Positions 41,770-57,061 of a stretch of 64,000 nucleotides of DNA are shown piece by piece. Origin of the DNA: an uncultured Planctomycetota bacterium (lineage in GTDB: Bacteria > Planctomycetota > Planctomycetia > Isosphaerales > Isosphaeraceae). Made by a program: the position numbers and the translations under genes. Location of the stretch: positions 2,528,001 to 2,592,000 of the forward strand of contig CAVTTN010000002.1 in NCBI GenBank assembly GCA_963737655.1, given 5' to 3'. Numbering within the stretch: the first letter of the stretch is position 1; each line of letters opens with the position of its first letter. The notes beneath the pieces were generated by a model. The model was given only the letters and a program-made list of their open reading frames with translations. It was not told the origin of the DNA and did no database searches.

Positions 41770-41983
41770 GGTGCATGAAATGCACCATCTTCGATTTGTG
41801 CTTCGATTTGTGGACCGAAAGGTTCGGGATCGAAGATGGTGCATTTCATGCACCCTACAACCGGCGACGGAGCGGGTGACGAACCTCTCGTAGGGTGCAT
41901 GAAATGCACCATCTTCGATTTGTGCTTCGATTTGTGGACCGAAAGGTTCGGGATCGAAGATGGTGCATTTCATGCACCCTACA
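41737..41983. repeat. 124-bp tandem duplication containing two GTAG REPINs
   Basis: 41737-41859 repeats at 41861-41983; each copy has gtagggtgcatgaaatgcacc ... ggtgcatttcatgcaccctac. Confidence 0.92.
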
Positions 41984-49930: not shown

Positions 49931-50614
49931 CTGTCCCCCTTCGTCGAACGACCGGATCGGCCGGGCGTGAGGTCGGCCCGTTGGCGAGGGTATCGCCGCC
50001 GAAGCCGGGCGACAATCGGCGGCGGGTCGCGAGGGTGCGAATGCCTCCGATGGGTGGGCGAGGAGGCCGATGCATCGGGTCCGCGACCGGTCCGGAAATC
50101 GGTTGAAGTCGGACCCCTGAGGGTGCCGATGATTGATCTGGTGCGATCCGCCGACTCCGGTTAAAAGAGGCCCACCGCGAGTGGACGTGATGCCTTTCGA
50201 CGTTCGAGTCGTCCTGGCCAAGAGGGCCGGGTGGTCGAGGACTCAGGAGGCGTCCGAACTTGCGGGTCCGCCCGATCGGGGGACGTGCCATGACGGTGCG
50301 TTCGCCTCGGGCGGGCGGCATCCTTTCATGATGAAGGGATGTTCGGCCCTCGATCCGAGGCCGGTCCAGGGAAGGGCCGGGGCGTCTTGCCCCCGGCGAG
50401 ATGCTCTCCTCGCACCCGCCTCCTCCTTTCGCCTGACCCCGCCCCCGACTCGCTCGGGAGCGGTCCGGTCCGCGGTCTCGCCCGCCTGGGGCGGGGCTTC
50501 CCGGAAGACCTCCTCGGCTCGAACGGCCCCCCGGCGTCCCTCGACGCCGCCCGCCTTCCCTCGGCCTCGACCGGGGGACGTCGGCTCGCCCTCGGGGAAA
50601 GGAGTCCTCCCGGC

Positions 50615-52186
50615 ATGACGACCGCCACGCTCTTCCTCGCCCTGATCGCCTCGCCGGCCGCCAACGCGCCCGAGGCCCCGGTGATCCTGGACTTCACCGC
50701 GAGCTGGTGCGGCCCCTGCCAGCAGATGAAGCCGGCCGTCGAGCTCCTGAAGAAGAACGGATACCCCGTCCGGGCCGTCGATTACGACTCGTCGAAGGCC
50801 CTCGTCCAGAAATACCGGATCACCGGCGTCCCCACCTTCGTCGTCGTCGATGCCGACGGCCGGGAGCTCGGCCGGCTCGACGGCTTCCGCCCGGCGAAGG
50901 ACATCGCCGACCTCTACCGCTCCGCCAACGCCCGGGTCAGGGCCGCGGCGAAGGACGACGGAGGCGACGACGACGTCGACCCCGACGCCGCCACCCCGCC
51001 CGGAGCCGCCCCGGTCCGCGCCGAGACCCCTTCGGAAGAGGATTCCTCCGGCCGCCGGCCTTATCCGTGGGAAACCACGGTCCGCATCAAGATCGATAAC
51101 CCGTACAGCCGCCCGGCCTCCGTCGAGTTCGGCTCGGGGACCGTGATTTACAGCTCCCCGGAAGAGACGATCATCCTCACCTGCGCCCACATCTTCCGGG
51201 TCGGCAAGGGCTCGGCGCAGCCCCGTCCCGACAAGTTCAACCTGCCGATCGAGGTCCAGCTCTTCGACGGCATCCTCCACGGCACCGAGCCGGCGAGGGT
51301 CCACTACAAGGGCGAGTCGTACCGCGGCCAGGCGATCGATTACGACTTCGTCGGCGACGTGGGGCTGATCCGCATCCGGCCCGGCAAGAGGCTGAAGGTC
51401 TCGCCCGTCGTGCCCGCGGACTGGGTCCCCCGCGAGAAGACGAGGATGACGACCGTGGGTTCCTCGGCCGGTCGCGACGCCACCGCCTGGACGACCTGGA
51501 TCACCAAAACGCGAGTCTCCGGCCTCGTCGAATACCCCAACTACGAAGCCACCGAGTGCGCCTATGCCCCGATCCCGGGACGCTCGGGAGGCGGCCTCTA
51601 CACGATCGACGGCATGGTCGCCGGGGTCTGCGACTTCGCCGAGCCGACCGGCGGACACGGCCTGTACGCCTCGCCCCGGACCATCCATAAACTGCTCGAC
51701 CGCAACAAGCTGACGGTCTGCTACGCGCCCGACTCGGCCCGGCCGAGGGAAGGGTCGGGGTCCGGGACCCTGGTGGCCCAACAGAGTCGCGGATCGGCGA
51801 CGAAGCTCCGGGCGCAGTCCGGCCCGGACATGACGCCGAAGCCCAAGAAGTTGACGATCCCCAGCCCCGAGCAACTCAACGTCCCCCCCCTGAGCGATAC
51901 GGACCGAATGGCGCGCTCTCCCCGGAGGCCCTCGCCGTGGTCGGCCGGAGGGACGGCGGTCGCGGCGACGAACGCCCGGGTCAAGCAGGTCGCCATCCCG
52001 AGGGAAGCCGACGACGAGGACGACCGGCCGATGGCCACCGACATGACCATGCTCCCCTCGATCGACACCGAGGCCATCTCCGCCCTCCCCGAAGCCGCGC
52101 CGGCCGTCGTCGAGAAGCCCGAAGCCGCCACGAAGCCCACCGCCCCCGGGACCCCGCGCAGCCCGAAGGTCTGGAAAGCCAAGTAG
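50615..52186 (+). CDS. Thioredoxin + trypsin-like serine protease fusion
   Basis: Signal-like N-terminus; WCGPC; TCAH / GDVG / GRSGGG; disordered C-terminal tail. Confidence 0.85.
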   Translation: MTTATLFLALIASPAANAPEAPVILDFTASWCGPCQQMKPAVELLKKNGYPVRAVDYDSSKALVQKYRITGVPTFVVVDADGRELGRLDGFRPAKDIADLYRSANARVRAAAKDDGGDDDVDPDAATPPGAAPVRAETPSEEDSSGRRPYPWETTVRIKIDNPYSRPASVEFGSGTVIYSSPEETIILTCAHIFRVGKGSAQPRPDKFNLPIEVQLFDGILHGTEPARVHYKGESYRGQAIDYDFVGDVGLIRIRPGKRLKVSPVVPADWVPREKTRMTTVGSSAGRDATAWTTWITKTRVSGLVEYPNYEATECAYAPIPGRSGGGLYTIDGMVAGVCDFAEPTGGHGLYASPRTIHKLLDRNKLTVCYAPDSARPREGSGSGTLVAQQSRGSATKLRAQSGPDMTPKPKKLTIPSPEQLNVPPLSDTDRMARSPRRPSPWSAGGTAVAATNARVKQVAIPREADDEDDRPMATDMTMLPSIDTEAISALPEAAPAVVEKPEAATKPTAPGTPRSPKVWKAK

Positions 52187-52323
52187 GGTGCATGAAATGC
52201 ACCAACAAGGCGGCGGCCGAAGGCCGCCCCCCGATCGCTCCTCGTGACGTGTCCATCGGACGGGAAACGAGGCGGTAAGCGGCCTCCGGCCGCTGCGGGT
52301 TTGGTGCATTGCATGCACCCTAC
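52183..52323. repeat. GTAG REPIN between convergent genes
   Basis: gtagggtgcatgaaatgcacc ... ggtgcattgcatgcaccctac; both flanking genes end on its TAG. Confidence 0.88.
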
Positions 52324-54557
52324 AGGATTTCCATCCCGAAACCGCGCAGGGCTTCTCGGAGCGGCTCGATCTGGCCATCGGGGACGACCACGGCGGTCGG
52401 TCCCAGGCGGTCTCCCAGCTTGTCCCTGGTGGCCGGGTGCTGGAGGAGGCCGTCGAGCAGGTCGGCCGCGGGGAGGTTCAGGACGATCGGCCGGGTCACC
52501 GTCAAGGGAGACGACCCCGGCCCGACCGCGTGCCACAGCAGCCGGACCGCCGGTGGGACCTCGCCGCCGACCCTCTGCGCGAACCATTTGGTCAGGCTCG
52601 CCGCCGAGACTCCATCCTCGGCCGCCCGGCGGAGCGATCGCGTGGTGATCCGGAACCGCCTCCGACCGGCCGGGCTCGGCGAGTCGCGATCGTCGCCCAG
52701 CTCGTCGGCGATCCTGGCGATTTCGGCGTCGATGAACAGGTCGGAGCGGCCGAGGTCCAGCGACAGGGTCACGCCGTCGGGATCGACCTCCACGCACGCC
52801 TCGGGCGGTCGGCGATAGTCGCGGGACCCCGCCAGGCGGAACCTCGCGAACGGGATCGTCGATTCGTCCTCGACCAGCAGGAGCCGATCGGACAGGGGGA
52901 CCGGCCGGCTTCCTTCGGGCCAGAGCGCGAGCGCCTCGGCCATCACTTCGGGCGAGGCGAACTCGACCAGGGTGGCCGCCCCGTGATAGGTGATCCGGTC
53001 CCGCCGGTTCGACCAGGTCTTCACCGCCTCGGCCACGCCCGCCGGCAACGGCCGGGCCGAGTGCTTCGCCAGGCGGTCGAGCATCGCGTCGGGGGACATC
53101 CCGCCTTCGAGCCCTCGATAGACCGACTCGGGCGTGAGCTTCATCTCCAGGGCCGCCCCGGCCTGCGACCACCTCATGAACCGGCTCAACTGGCCGATCA
53201 GCCCCGGATTGAGGCCCTGGCGATAGGCGATGACCTCGAAGTTCGGCTGGACGAACAGGAAGTGCGGGAACGTCGTCCGGGGCGGCGGCGGCGGGCCGAG
53301 CGCGAGCGAATAGCGGCCGAGCTCGGTCAACTGCACGACCCTCCGGCCGCTCGGGTCTTCCTCGGCGGCCCGGACCAGGCCGATCTGATACGCCGGTCCG
53401 AGCAAGATCGCTTCGAGGAGGTCCATCCCGCCCAGGGGGCCGGGCGAATCGGCCTCGCCGCCCCGCTTGCGAGCGAAATGGCCTCGGCCCGACGGCTCCG
53501 CCCCACCCAGGATCGGCGCCGACCATCCGGGGAACGTCTCGTCGAGCAAGGCGGCAAGATCGTCGAGCGCCACCCACTCGCCGGCCGGTTTCCTCGCGAG
53601 CCAGAGGAACACGGCGGGCCGGAGGAACGGCCCGGCGAGGCCCACCGGCGAATCCTCGCTCCTGGATCCGCCCTGCTCGCTCCACGACCTCATCCCGAGC
53701 CATCGCGCGGCGGCCATTTGCGGCAGATGCACCGCGTTCTCGGACCAGAAATCGGCCGGGGCGGCGGAGGTCCGATCGGATTGCGAGTCGTCGATCACCA
53801 GGCCCACGCCCCGGGCCAGGGAGAGCCACAGGCCGGCCATGTCGGGCAGCGGTTCGAGGGCGTCGGCGATCGGCCCGACGAGGACCGGGTCATCCTCGAT
53901 CCGCTCGCGGTCTCGTTTGTAGAGCGAGCCGGTTTGCGTCCTCCGCAACGGCGCCTCGTCGACGATCTGCCAGAGGGCGGCGAGGCGGAGGATGAATTCC
54001 AGGCCGTCGGTCTCGCGGACCTGGCGGGTCGGGCCGCTCGCAGGCGGCCCCTCGGCCTCGGGCAAGACCGTCCGGCCCACGCTGAGGATCGCCGGGGGGG
54101 CGACGAGGTCGCAGCCCGGAGGGTCGAGCAGGCGTTCCGGGTCGCTCGGCGGGGGGCCGTCCCCCAAACGTCGGGGCACGAGCAATCCCAGGGGCAGCAA
54201 TTCGCTCGCGACCGGGACGAACGGCTCGCCCAGCGAGGCCAGGGCGAAGGCGAGTCCCGAGGCGGGCCAGATCGAGTTCTCGGTCAAGGCCATCAGGCCC
54301 AGGGCGATCCGAGACCCGCGTCCCAGACGCTCCCAGAGCCCTTCGACGAACCGCGTCTCGCCCAGCCGATCGACGATCGCCGGCGCCAGCTCCGTGGGCT
54401 TCAGGGAGCGATCGTACGGGCCGAGCGTCCGCAGGACGTCGGTCCGATAGGCGGCCGGCTGGCGGGAGAGCGCCTCGCGGTACGCCTCGCTCGGGGCCTC
54501 CTGGCGAGGGGGCATCCCCTCGACGTCGATCGTGGTCATGGTCTCGGGGTCGGTCAT
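52320..54557 (-). CDS. XPB partner with helicase-associated (Helicase_C_3 / p52-Tfb2-like) domains
   Basis: VQPNFEVIAY...LTPESVYRGLEGGMS...LPAGVAEAVKTW..RRDR, plus a second degenerate copy (RFRITTRSLRRAAEDGVS); no Walker motifs seen. Confidence 0.82.
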   Translation of the reverse strand: MTDPETMTTIDVEGMPPRQEAPSEAYREALSRQPAAYRTDVLRTLGPYDRSLKPTELAPAIVDRLGETRFVEGLWERLGRGSRIALGLMALTENSIWPASGLAFALASLGEPFVPVASELLPLGLLVPRRLGDGPPPSDPERLLDPPGCDLVAPPAILSVGRTVLPEAEGPPASGPTRQVRETDGLEFILRLAALWQIVDEAPLRRTQTGSLYKRDRERIEDDPVLVGPIADALEPLPDMAGLWLSLARGVGLVIDDSQSDRTSAAPADFWSENAVHLPQMAAARWLGMRSWSEQGGSRSEDSPVGLAGPFLRPAVFLWLARKPAGEWVALDDLAALLDETFPGWSAPILGGAEPSGRGHFARKRGGEADSPGPLGGMDLLEAILLGPAYQIGLVRAAEEDPSGRRVVQLTELGRYSLALGPPPPPRTTFPHFLFVQPNFEVIAYRQGLNPGLIGQLSRFMRWSQAGAALEMKLTPESVYRGLEGGMSPDAMLDRLAKHSARPLPAGVAEAVKTWSNRRDRITYHGAATLVEFASPEVMAEALALWPEGSRPVPLSDRLLLVEDESTIPFARFRLAGSRDYRRPPEACVEVDPDGVTLSLDLGRSDLFIDAEIARIADELGDDRDSPSPAGRRRFRITTRSLRRAAEDGVSAASLTKWFAQRVGGEVPPAVRLLWHAVGPGSSPLTVTRPIVLNLPAADLLDGLLQHPATRDKLGDRLGPTAVVVPDGQIEPLREALRGFGMEIL

Positions 54558-54778
54558 CGGACGATCCGGGGGGTATGGCCCATCCGCCTCAGCTCATCGA
54601 GCACGGCATCTTCCTCCTCGGGCCGGACGAGCAACACCGTCTCCGACAACCGCCCGGCAATCAACCTCGCCAGGGTCTTCCTCGCGAGTAATTCCTCGGC
54701 CAAGATCGGCTCGGAGGTGCGGATCAGGCTGACCTGGCGATGAAGCTTCACGGGAATCCGGGCAAGCGGTCCAGCCAT
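54554..54778 (-). CDS. 74-aa stand-alone p8/Tfb5-like module protein
   Basis: ATGA overlap with the downstream gene; resembles the C-terminal module of the 745-aa protein and the segment after the XPB N-terminal domain. Confidence 0.75.
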   Translation of the reverse strand: MAGPLARIPVKLHRQVSLIRTSEPILAEELLARKTLARLIAGRLSETVLLVRPEEEDAVLDELRRMGHTPRIVR

Positions 54779-54790
54779 CGACAGTTCCCC

Positions 54791-54811
54791 GTAGGGTGCA
54801 TGAAATGCACC
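54791..54811. repeat. Single GTAG REP
   Basis: gtagggtgcatgaaatgcacc, identical to the copies at 41766 and 52183. Confidence 0.85.
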
Positions 54812-54812
54812 A

Positions 54813-55337
54813 TCATGTAGGGCGGGTGGAACCCGCCGAAGCTTCCGAATCCCGGTCCGAAGACCCGAGTGCTCGCTCCCGTCGCGAGGTCCACAGCCCC
54901 AGCAAGCCACCCATGACCCCAGCAGGCAACGTGCTAGACATGAGGAACAAGGACCTGATGCGCTCGTTTCTGTTCCAAAAAGTGTACAGCTCGGGCGGCG
55001 TTAGTCCGCTTTTTTTCGCCTCATCCTGTAGCCGGTCCATGACATCTTCGGAGATTGCAATACTCGGGAGGAGGACATTCGGTCGATCAGTCATGTTCTC
55101 CACAATGCACATATGGTATGCCCAGCCGAACGCTGCAAATCCGAACCAGAACGCCCGGCGACTAGTCTTTCCAAATCGAGCCGCGAACGTTGCGAACAGG
55201 AGTATGACAATAACTCCCAACGCGGTTAACCGTCTCAGCGGTTCGCTTGTCGCAAGAGCCGGCCACATCATCACCGCTGTTACGGCGATGACGATCATCA
55301 GCCCGCCAATCGTGATGCGCCCTCGCCGCCCCGTCAC
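54813..55337 (-). CDS. Lower-GC membrane protein inserted in the XPB operon
   Basis: RITIGGLM...RRAFWFGF motifs shared with 5191-5811; GTGA overlap with the XPB stop (alternative start 55346); visibly more A/T-rich. Confidence 0.7.
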   Translation of the reverse strand: MTGRRGRITIGGLMIVIAVTAVMMWPALATSEPLRRLTALGVIVILLFATFAARFGKTSRRAFWFGFAAFGWAYHMCIVENMTDRPNVLLPSIAISEDVMDRLQDEAKKSGLTPPELYTFWNRNERIRSLFLMSSTLPAGVMGGLLGLWTSRRERALGSSDRDSEASAGSTRPT

Positions 55338-57061
55338 GACGCGCACGCCCCGGGCGAGCCTGCCGGCGCCTCGGCTGCCGACACGTCCGCCTCGTCCACG
55401 ATCTCGTAGCTGTAGCCCTGCTCGGTGAGGAACAACTGGCGGTGGTGGGCGAAGTCCATCTCCCTCGTGTCGCGGGTCACGAGCGTGTAAAAATGCGCCG
55501 GCTCGGCGCCGTCCTTCGGCCTCAGGATTCGCCCGAGCCGCTGGGCCTCTTCCTGACGGCTGCCGAAGGTGCCCGAGACCTGAATCATGACGTTCGCGTC
55601 GGGCAGGTCGATGGCGAAATTGCCGACCTTCGACAGCACCAACCGGCGGATCTCGCCCCTGCGGAACTTCCCGTACAAATCCTCGCGCTCGGGGTTCGAG
55701 GTCTGGCCGGTGATCAGCGGAAGCTCGTAACGCTCGGCGATCCGTCGCAGTTGCTTCAAATACTGGCCGATGATCAACACGCGATCATCGGGGCCGTCGT
55801 GCCTGGCCAATAGCGTGTCGATCAGGTCTTCCTTGGCGGGGTTCTCGCTGGCCAGCCGGAACTTGTCGCGCCACTCGGCCACGGCGTATTCCATCCGGGC
55901 GTCGTGAGGCAACGCCAGGCGGACCTCCCGGCAGAGGGCCTGCGCGATCCAGCCTTTTTGTTCGAGGACCCGCCAGGGCACGTCGAACTTCTTCGGGCCG
56001 ATCAGGCTGAAGACGTCCTCCTCGCGGCCGTCCTCGCGGACGAGCGTCGCCGTGAGCCCGAGGCGCCGACGGGCCTGGATGTCGGCCGTGACCCGGAAGA
56101 CCGGCGCGGGCAACAGGTGGACCTCGTCGTAGACGATCAGGCCCCAATCGCGCTCGTTGAACAGCTTGAAATGGGGGAAGTCGCCGTCCTTCTTGGGCCG
56201 GAAGGTGACGATTTGATAGGTGGCGATCGTGACCGGGGCGATCTCCTTCGAGTCGCCGGTGTACGTGGCCACCTGGTCGTCGCTCAGGTCGGTCTTGTCC
56301 AGGACCTCGCGCTTCCACTGCTCCACGGCGGTGGTGCTGGTGGTCAGGATCAGGGTATGGCGCTTCAGGGCGGCCATCGCGGCGATGCCGACGATCGTCT
56401 TGCCGGCCCCGCAGGGCAGGACGATCACGCCCGAGCCTCCGCGGACGTCCCCCCCGGCGTGGAACGCATCGACCGACATCTTCTGATAGTCGCGGACCCG
56501 GAACGGATGGCCCGATCGAGCGATCTCGACCAGGTCGAGCTGGAGGGGGGAGCCGTCGGTGTAGCCGGCGAGGTCCTCGGCCGGGTAGCCGACGGCGATC
56601 AGGGCTTGCTTGACGAGTCCCCGGTCGCCGTCGTCGATCCGATAGCTCGTGTCGTCGATCCGGTCGTACAGGTAGTTCTTGAGGGCCTTCTGGCGGGCGA
56701 GCTCCTCGATCAGGGGGCGGTCCTTCGTCATCAGGACGAGGTTTTCCCCCTGGCGGACGAGGCGGACCCGGCCGTACCGGCCGACGAGCTCGCGGAGATC
56801 GACGGGCAGATTCGGGGGCAGGGGGAACTTGCTGAAGGTCTCCAGGACCTGGACCATCGCCTCGGCGGTCATCCCGGCGGCGGCGGCGTTCCAGAGCGAG
56901 AGCGGCGTGAGCCGATAGGTATGGATATGCTCGGGGCTTTTTTCCAGCTCGGCGAACGGGGCGAGGGCGTCGCGGGCCTCGGGATAGAGCGGATTCTCGA
57001 CCTCCAGCAGCACCGTGCGGTCCCCCTGCACGATGAGCGGGTTGGCGGGGTTGTACTGCAT
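55334..57061 (-). CDS. xpb: XPB/Ssl2/ERCC3-like SF2 DNA helicase
   Basis: N-terminal PLIVQGDRTVLLE..ELEKSPEHIHTYRLTPLSLWNA, LPCGAGKT, DEVH, GLTATLVREDG (RED motif), QRLGRILR; AAGGAG RBS. Confidence 0.95.
   Translation of the reverse strand: MQYNPANPLIVQGDRTVLLEVENPLYPEARDALAPFAELEKSPEHIHTYRLTPLSLWNAAAAGMTAEAMVQVLETFSKFPLPPNLPVDLRELVGRYGRVRLVRQGENLVLMTKDRPLIEELARQKALKNYLYDRIDDTSYRIDDGDRGLVKQALIAVGYPAEDLAGYTDGSPLQLDLVEIARSGHPFRVRDYQKMSVDAFHAGGDVRGGSGVIVLPCGAGKTIVGIAAMAALKRHTLILTTSTTAVEQWKREVLDKTDLSDDQVATYTGDSKEIAPVTIATYQIVTFRPKKDGDFPHFKLFNERDWGLIVYDEVHLLPAPVFRVTADIQARRRLGLTATLVREDGREEDVFSLIGPKKFDVPWRVLEQKGWIAQALCREVRLALPHDARMEYAVAEWRDKFRLASENPAKEDLIDTLLARHDGPDDRVLIIGQYLKQLRRIAERYELPLITGQTSNPEREDLYGKFRRGEIRRLVLSKVGNFAIDLPDANVMIQVSGTFGSRQEEAQRLGRILRPKDGAEPAHFYTLVTRDTREMDFAHHRQLFLTEQGYSYEIVDEADVSAAEAPAGSPGACAS

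Follow-up and report, generated by a model that had tools for sequence, protein, structure and literature searches.

A likely bacterial version of the XPB-p52-p8 part of TFIIH encoded in an uncultured planctomycete

Within a 64,000-nucleotide stretch of DNA from an uncultured bacterium of the Isosphaeraceae (Planctomycetota; GenBank assembly GCA_963737655.1, contig CAVTTN010000002.1, positions 2,528,001 to 2,592,000 of the forward strand; hereafter the window), a gene of 74 codons lies between a gene for the helicase/translocase XPB and one for a protein of 745 amino acids (aa). We find that this trio is likely a bacterial version of the XPB-p52-p8 part of human TFIIH, a factor that acts in both transcription and DNA repair. 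Family profiles support the small protein as a remote homolog of p8/Tfb5, the 745-aa protein is, by its predicted model, a structural homolog of p52/Tfb2, and the module that makes up the small protein recurs in both of the larger ones. Coordinates are collected in Table 1. Literature is cited by PubMed Central number.

Conservation of the small gene and its likeness to p8

The small gene starts with the ATG at 54778, and its stop overlaps the start of the 745-aa gene as ATGA. A preliminary description of the locus, made from its letters alone, had placed a stand-alone open reading frame (ORF) of 74 aa here and had noted that its start lies inside a longer frame; both statements are borne out. 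The longer ORF (118 codons, GTG start, 54554-54910) was rejected as the gene. Its 44-codon extension is judged non-coding because it has an in-frame stop in 59 of 80 related loci, because an ATG within -8 to +3 codons of the small-gene start is found in 74 of the 80, and because DNA identity over the 132 bases upstream is only 0.24-0.33 in the 12 ungapped loci compared; it also contains a 17-nt repeat of which the genome has 240 exact copies. The 80 loci are those kept from 84 confirmed in a genome scan and come mostly from Isosphaerales and Gemmatales. The small ORF is separate from its neighbours in all of them. Over the 12 ungapped loci, differences at codon positions 1, 2 and 3 number 203, 66 and 437, with 368 synonymous against 174 non-synonymous codon changes, and 2108 of 2113 candidates of 40-130 aa were relatives, the named ones from Isosphaeraceae. 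By this pattern of substitution the ORF is a genuine and strongly conserved gene with a predicted product, and the conservation on which the preliminary description had staked its case is there. Single-sequence searches of Pfam, NCBIfam and the PDB returned nothing meaningful and no family model for the protein, and a promoter scan gave no sigma-70-like site.

Likeness to p8 emerges at the level of the family. When a profile built from 50 diverse small proteins was run against 177,635 PDB sequences, yeast Tfb5 was the top match (E 1.3e-4, 49 ungapped columns) and the next unrelated match stood at E 0.09; human p8 was absent from the matches at E up to 10. A narrower profile likewise ranked Tfb5 first (E 0.066). 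At 74 aa the protein has the size of p8 (~70 aa), and its predicted model (pLDDT 82.5) shows the elements in the same sequence as p8 (strand, helix, two strands, helix), followed by an extra strand. Pfam Tfb5 (PF06331) did not match the 74-aa protein of the source genome; below its cut-off it matched 7 of 82 relatives (best E 0.073) and reached E 0.009 with the best distant relative. In 61 genomes it gave no match above its cut-off, the two best matches being the small genes themselves. The comparison with Tfb5 proposed in the preliminary description therefore has a divided outcome, with Tfb5 ranked first in the PDB by the family profile but no Pfam match above cut-off. The likeness itself is supported by that profile and by the presence of a p52-homologous neighbour.

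A repeated unit in the three proteins

Profiles of the small family, one planctomycete and one broader, were aligned by HHalign with sliding windows of both larger proteins. The planctomycete profile matched the C-terminus of the 745-aa protein (P 91, E 1e-6), residues 96-168 of XPB with a peak at 101-165 (P 66-70, E 5e-5) and a segment in the middle of the 745-aa protein (P 20-24, E 8e-4), and all other windows scored lower; the broader profile raised the three to P 96, 94 and 74, respectively. In column shuffles, 0 of 60 reached the real score for each of the three copies, so the recurrence that had been read by eye from the sequence, weaker in the middle segment, exceeds chance. The broad profile also picked up, on its own, the copies in XPB and p52-like proteins of other genomes. 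These profile comparisons support the assignment of all four segments to one family.

A second repeat accompanies the first. XPB has one clutch-fold domain and the 745-aa protein two (HHalign P 90-94); the second clutch-like domain of the latter scores P 94 to the first and P 90 to the XPB N-terminus, and clutch domain 1 superposes on the homologous N-terminal domain of XPB with Z 15 and a root-mean-square deviation (rmsd) of 1.5. XPB is thus laid out as clutch, module and motor, and the 745-aa protein as N-terminal domains followed twice by clutch and module. Residues 6-110 of the bacterial XPB align with human XPB 73-177, and the DRD-like domain of eukaryotic XPB comprises residues 165-300 (PMC6422496); the XPB module therefore begins where the DRD-like domain begins. 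The preliminary description had taken the module for a shared dimerisation device that holds the complex together. In this general form the proposal is unlikely, as the XPB copy corresponds to the DRD-like domain and as XPB in TFIIH is held by a pair formed from the clutch and the XPB N-terminal domain (PMC6422496), a pair that is present here too.

The 745-aa protein carries PF13625 (Helicase_C_3). Pfam Tfb2 and Tfb2_C gave no match to it, and in its relatives they reached E 2e-5 to 8e-4, below cut-off. Its predicted model (pLDDT 90) matched p52/Tfb2 in Foldseek at E 1.3e-9. Residues 40-573 of the model span p52 19-455 with Z 14.5; the rmsd is high because the domains are oriented differently. 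The domain order of p52 (N-terminal helical/winged-helix, clutch, p8-binding domain) is found in the 745-aa protein, and the sequence profile is collinear from the Tfb2 clutch into the p8-binding domain. Because of the span of the model alignment and the collinear Tfb2 alignment, the middle module, not the C-terminal one, is by position the predicted counterpart of the p8-binding domain of p52. The preliminary description had proposed the C-terminus as the partner of the small protein; by this correspondence the middle segment is the likelier one. The C-terminal module, for its part, aligns with Tfb5 (3dom_B) over 56 of 58 residues (Z 6.1, rmsd 2.8). The structural comparison foreseen in the preliminary description aligned this copy with Tfb5; the small protein's own model agrees with p8 in the order of its elements, but Tfb5 was far down its list of matches (see below).

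Table 1. Features of the XPB, small-protein and p52-like genes and their surroundings (positions in the window)
Feature	Position	Strand	Basis
74-aa p8/Tfb5-like protein (stand-alone module S)	54554..54778	-	ORF, relatives, profile match, codon pattern
745-aa p52/Tfb2-like protein	52320..54557	-	Pfam domain, profile, predicted model
Clutch domain 1 of 745-aa protein (residues 430-520), equivalent of p52 clutch and predicted XPB-binding site	52998..53270	-	Pfam Helicase_C_3, Tfb2 match
Degenerate middle module M (residues 521-575), putative small-protein partner	52833..52997	-	Profile and model alignments
Second clutch-like domain (residues 585-680), absent from eukaryotic p52	52518..52805	-	HHalign
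C-terminal module C (residues 685-741), p8 fold in predicted model	52335..52505	-	P 91-96 to small family
XPB helicase/translocase, 575 aa	55334..57061	-	NF045503, 871.6 bits (cut-off 610)
XPB N-terminal clutch-fold domain (residues 6-97)	56771..57046	-	Profile, alignment with human XPB
XPB module D (residues 98-165), equivalent of DRD-like domain	56567..56770	-	Same family as small protein
177-aa hydrophobic membrane-type ORF between XPB and small gene	54813..55346	-	Absent from 80/80 related loci
Copy of genome-wide short repeat within spurious 5' extension	54791..54815	.	Repeat count

Organization and distribution of the locus

XPB lies upstream of the small gene in 69 of the 80 loci, a homolog of the 745-aa protein downstream in 67, and both in 61. 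The same order is found on plasmid pDATS01 of Deinococcus aquaticus, where RefSeq names the XPB and the 'helicase-associated domain' protein as such and calls the small gene 'hypothetical'. In the source genome XPB, the true start of which is at 57061, is not the immediate neighbour of the small gene because the 177-aa ORF intervenes. This ORF has four paralogs elsewhere in the genome and is not part of the system. The earlier statement that the module is repeated in "both neighbouring proteins" is accordingly right as to the copies but not as to the adjacency of XPB.

The co-occurrence of the genes is close in the class. Among 201 Planctomycetia genomes (related genomes, not independent of each other), the 99 with XPB are the same 99 that have a strong small-gene match (E <= 2.5e-19), even when the two are unlinked; one further genome has a weak small-gene match only, in a long frame. 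Across the phylum, XPB was found in 111 of 251 genomes against any module match in 44 of 251. A language-model search gave a Chloroflexota-led cluster as a lead. On viral contigs two weak matches, one broken by stops and one of 14 residues, were judged to be chance.

Forms of the locus were compared over 60 hand-picked loci, the relatives among which are likewise not independent. A long tail of the p52-like protein, with a degenerate module and a second clutch after the first clutch, was found at 13 of 13 loci with a small gene and a visible p52-like gene and at 0 of 41 loci without a small gene; 12 of the 13 also have the last module. The 41 loci without the small gene have a short tail with one complete module, or none in 2. 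The remaining loci were three short-tail ones missed by the script, two without a p52-like gene and one at a contig edge. A distant subfamily of the small protein, seen at 43 metagenome loci, gave a long tail in 11 of 11 complete downstream genes. At a single locus, L126, the small gene and the middle module are kept and the C-terminal module is gone. In nine genomes without a small gene at the locus, no unlinked one was found at E <= 0.05 (at most 150 candidates each); in a tenth, the search picked up a divergent small gene at E 3.6e-4, which shows that it works close to the limit of its sensitivity. Three-gene loci fall in more than one cluster of the XPB tree, and no order of events was inferred from it because its deep nodes are poorly supported.

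A natural fusion places the small module at the N-terminus of the p52-like protein. It forms a 32-member cluster (P0212, 826 aa) of one lineage, in which the junction was read in seven sequences and the p52-like body confirmed. Other apparent fusions were set aside: 8 of 29 longer proteins that hold the module were read and all looked like frameshifted joins of neighbouring genes, and an apparent XPB fusion at one of the 80 loci is a frameshifted XPB.

Several further variants were observed. The p52-like proteins of L124, L125, L146 and L175 have an extra domain of ~80-100 aa after the last module that is WYL-like by eye, and the three such domains scanned had no Pfam WYL match. At L174 (6621-9962) a p52-like protein of ~1100 aa has one clutch and a small-protein-like module and does not adjoin XPB. 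Two p52-like proteins (L153:6420-10250 and L160:5065-7257) stop directly behind the clutch; they lack a C-terminal module, and no small gene lies near them. At L204 (2560-8432) two p52-like genes flank XPB, with the small gene between XPB and the second one. In the XPB of genomes G275, G287, G322, G326 and G366, an in-frame insertion close to model position 287 divides the match into two parts.

Around the locus in the window, the insertion of the 177-aa ORF adjoins a copy of the genome-wide short repeat. The same repeat forms 45-nt inverted arms 51 nt apart directly after the 745-aa gene (52183-52227 and 52279-52323), clusters near 41.8 kb (41770-41978) and resembles a REP- or MITE-type family. 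An ordinary and unrelated gene for a thioredoxin and trypsin-like protease (50339-52186, plus strand) converges on the end of the operon. Of the other members of the seven-subunit TFIIH core, XPD, p62, p44 and p34 were not found among the flanking genes scanned, no genome-wide search having been made.

Partner of the small protein and place among known systems

The clutch of p52 joins the N-terminal domain of XPB in a pseudo-symmetric dimer within TFIIH (PMC6422496). There p8 pairs by strands with the C-terminal domain of p52, contacts the second motor domain of XPB and both raises and limits the ATPase of XPB, the stimulation being exerted together with p52 (PMC7708078). All the parts that such an arrangement calls for are found in the bacterial set. 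By analogy, the bacterial p52-like protein likely holds XPB clutch-to-clutch, and the small protein likely binds the degenerate module directly behind the first clutch and completes it. The trio would then steady the motor of XPB and determine the rates of its ATPase and translocation, an effect taken from the fungal proteins (PMC7708078). That the small protein is a bacterial p8 which completes the middle module and braces the motor is the reading that we consider probable, with appreciable room for doubt; we infer the protein contacts, as well as which module serves as partner and how XPB is affected. The likeliest cellular role, assumed from the homologs, would be local opening of DNA in repair.

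One residue pair could mark the p8-like contact. Tfb2 R450 contacts p8 D13 (PMC9557730), and Arg521 of the 745-aa protein aligns with R450; an arginine is present at this position in 52 of 53 close tails and 17 of 26 distant ones, and position 23 of the small protein is acidic in 82 of 82 and 49 of 50 sequences. The argument is only suggestive because the module of XPB itself also begins with an invariant arginine. This is one of several points that weigh against the small protein as a p8 of the middle module. In the hidden Markov model alignment, the acid lies one position away from Tfb5 D13, at the start of a helix. Of all the copies, the middle module is the most eroded and gives the weakest match (P 24-74), and the small family is closer to the C-terminal copy (P 91-96) and to the one C-terminal module that the two-gene form has (P 97). 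Many planctomycetes have XPB and the p52-like gene alone. No small protein passes the Pfam Tfb5 cut-off (best E 0.009-0.07). The model of the small protein resembles generic ferredoxin-like folds at least as closely as it does p8: Foldseek ranked Tfb5 34th (E 0.39), and in structure-aligner searches p8 was absent from the top 50, the top match (Z 6.7) being to unrelated ferredoxin-like domains. Finally, the protein ends in a conserved G-H-x-P and a strand beyond the stretch that matches Tfb5, and it could therefore be self-complete.

In another arrangement, the small protein would bind the p52-like protein at its C-terminal module, or one copy would sit at each module. The C-terminal copy is the closest in profile (P 91-96) and has the p8 fold in the model, and by the secondary structure of the monomer model neither module has its first strand paired. 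However, the two-gene form has a complete C-terminal module yet no small gene, and L126 keeps the small gene without that module; we regard this arrangement as rather unlikely. The Tfb5-like alignment of the C-terminal module over 56 of 58 residues could also mean that it is a built-in p8 which pairs with the middle module within the chain, leaving the small protein to homodimerise or to pair with the copy carried by XPB. Homodimers of p8 are known. In the secondary structure of the monomer model, the stretches that would pair have no strand; moreover, the natural fusion joins the small module to the p52-like protein and not to XPB, and the small gene stays beside the p52-like gene where XPB is not adjacent, so that we hold this to be improbable.

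The extra C-terminal strand, together with ferredoxin-like matches up to Z 6.7, suggests a further option, namely a self-complete monomer that would act alongside XPB, with no strand-sharing pseudo-dimer, and serve, e.g., as a surface adaptor or as a DNA-contacting domain like the DRD. A mean identity of 0.66, against 0.44-0.48 for the p52-like modules, and a net charge of +3 would fit such a role, but the conserved basic N-terminal strand is unpaired in the monomer model and the small gene is tied to one p52-like architecture. We give this option little credence. Binding of the small protein to the degenerate middle module is the arrangement that we prefer over these three.

The closest known system is the eukaryotic XPB-p52-p8 assembly (human XPB/GTF2H4/GTF2H5; yeast Ssl2/Tfb2/Tfb5; PDB 6NMI, 6TRS, 3DOM). 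The bacterial set resembles it in its Tfb5-homologous small protein, in a neighbour whose homology to p52 begins in the N-terminal domains, takes in the clutch and reaches the p8-binding domain, and in an XPB with N-terminal clutch-fold and DRD-like domains. It differs in being bacterial and operon-like, in the second clutch-plus-module unit and degenerate first module of the p52-like protein, in the G-H-x-P strand of the small protein and in the common occurrence of a two-gene form that lacks the small protein. The helicase belongs with the bacterial XPBs (NF045503; compare Mycobacterium tuberculosis XPB, PMC3353954), and the 745-aa protein shares PF13625 with the Helicase_C_3 'helicase-associated domain' proteins. 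Archaeal XPB likewise has a dedicated partner encoded nearby, Bax1; unlike the partners here, in which no nuclease domain was found, Bax1 is a nuclease (PMC7293015, PMC7672443). Bax1 was not matched by the small or the 745-aa protein among the results of sequence and fold searches. The role of prokaryotic XPB has been called elusive (PMC13024598), and Helicase C3-WYL proteins have been catalogued without a link to p52 being drawn in the accessible text (PMC6789036). No bacterial p52 or p8 is described in the accessible parts of PMC7293015, PMC7672443, PMC6222260 and PMC6789036. A literature search, with most subscription papers and all supplements outside its coverage, likewise gave no description of a bacterial p8 or p52. 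The supplementary alignment of Greber 2019 reportedly includes bacterial XPB.

Until now, bacteria have been thought to lack the p52 and p8 partners, and bacterial XPB has been studied without them because homologs of p52, like those of p44, were stated not to be found in bacteria (PMC3353954). The trio bears on the origin of TFIIH. A tentative possibility, which we would not yet bet on, is that the XPB-p52-p8 core of TFIIH is a bacterial machine assembled from copies of a single unit, a clutch followed by a p8-type module. On this view p8, the p52 C-terminal domain and the 'damage recognition' domain of XPB would be paralogs, a free p8 would become necessary when the module in p52 degenerates, and eukaryotes would have acquired all three proteins from a prokaryotic form with three genes instead of inventing p52 and p8 themselves. 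The three-protein bacterial set may serve as a minimal system for the activation and restraint of the XPB motor by p52 and p8, and it gives a direct way of asking what XPB does in bacteria. The natural two-gene, three-gene and fused forms address why p8 is needed, a question that bears on p8-deficient trichothiodystrophy.
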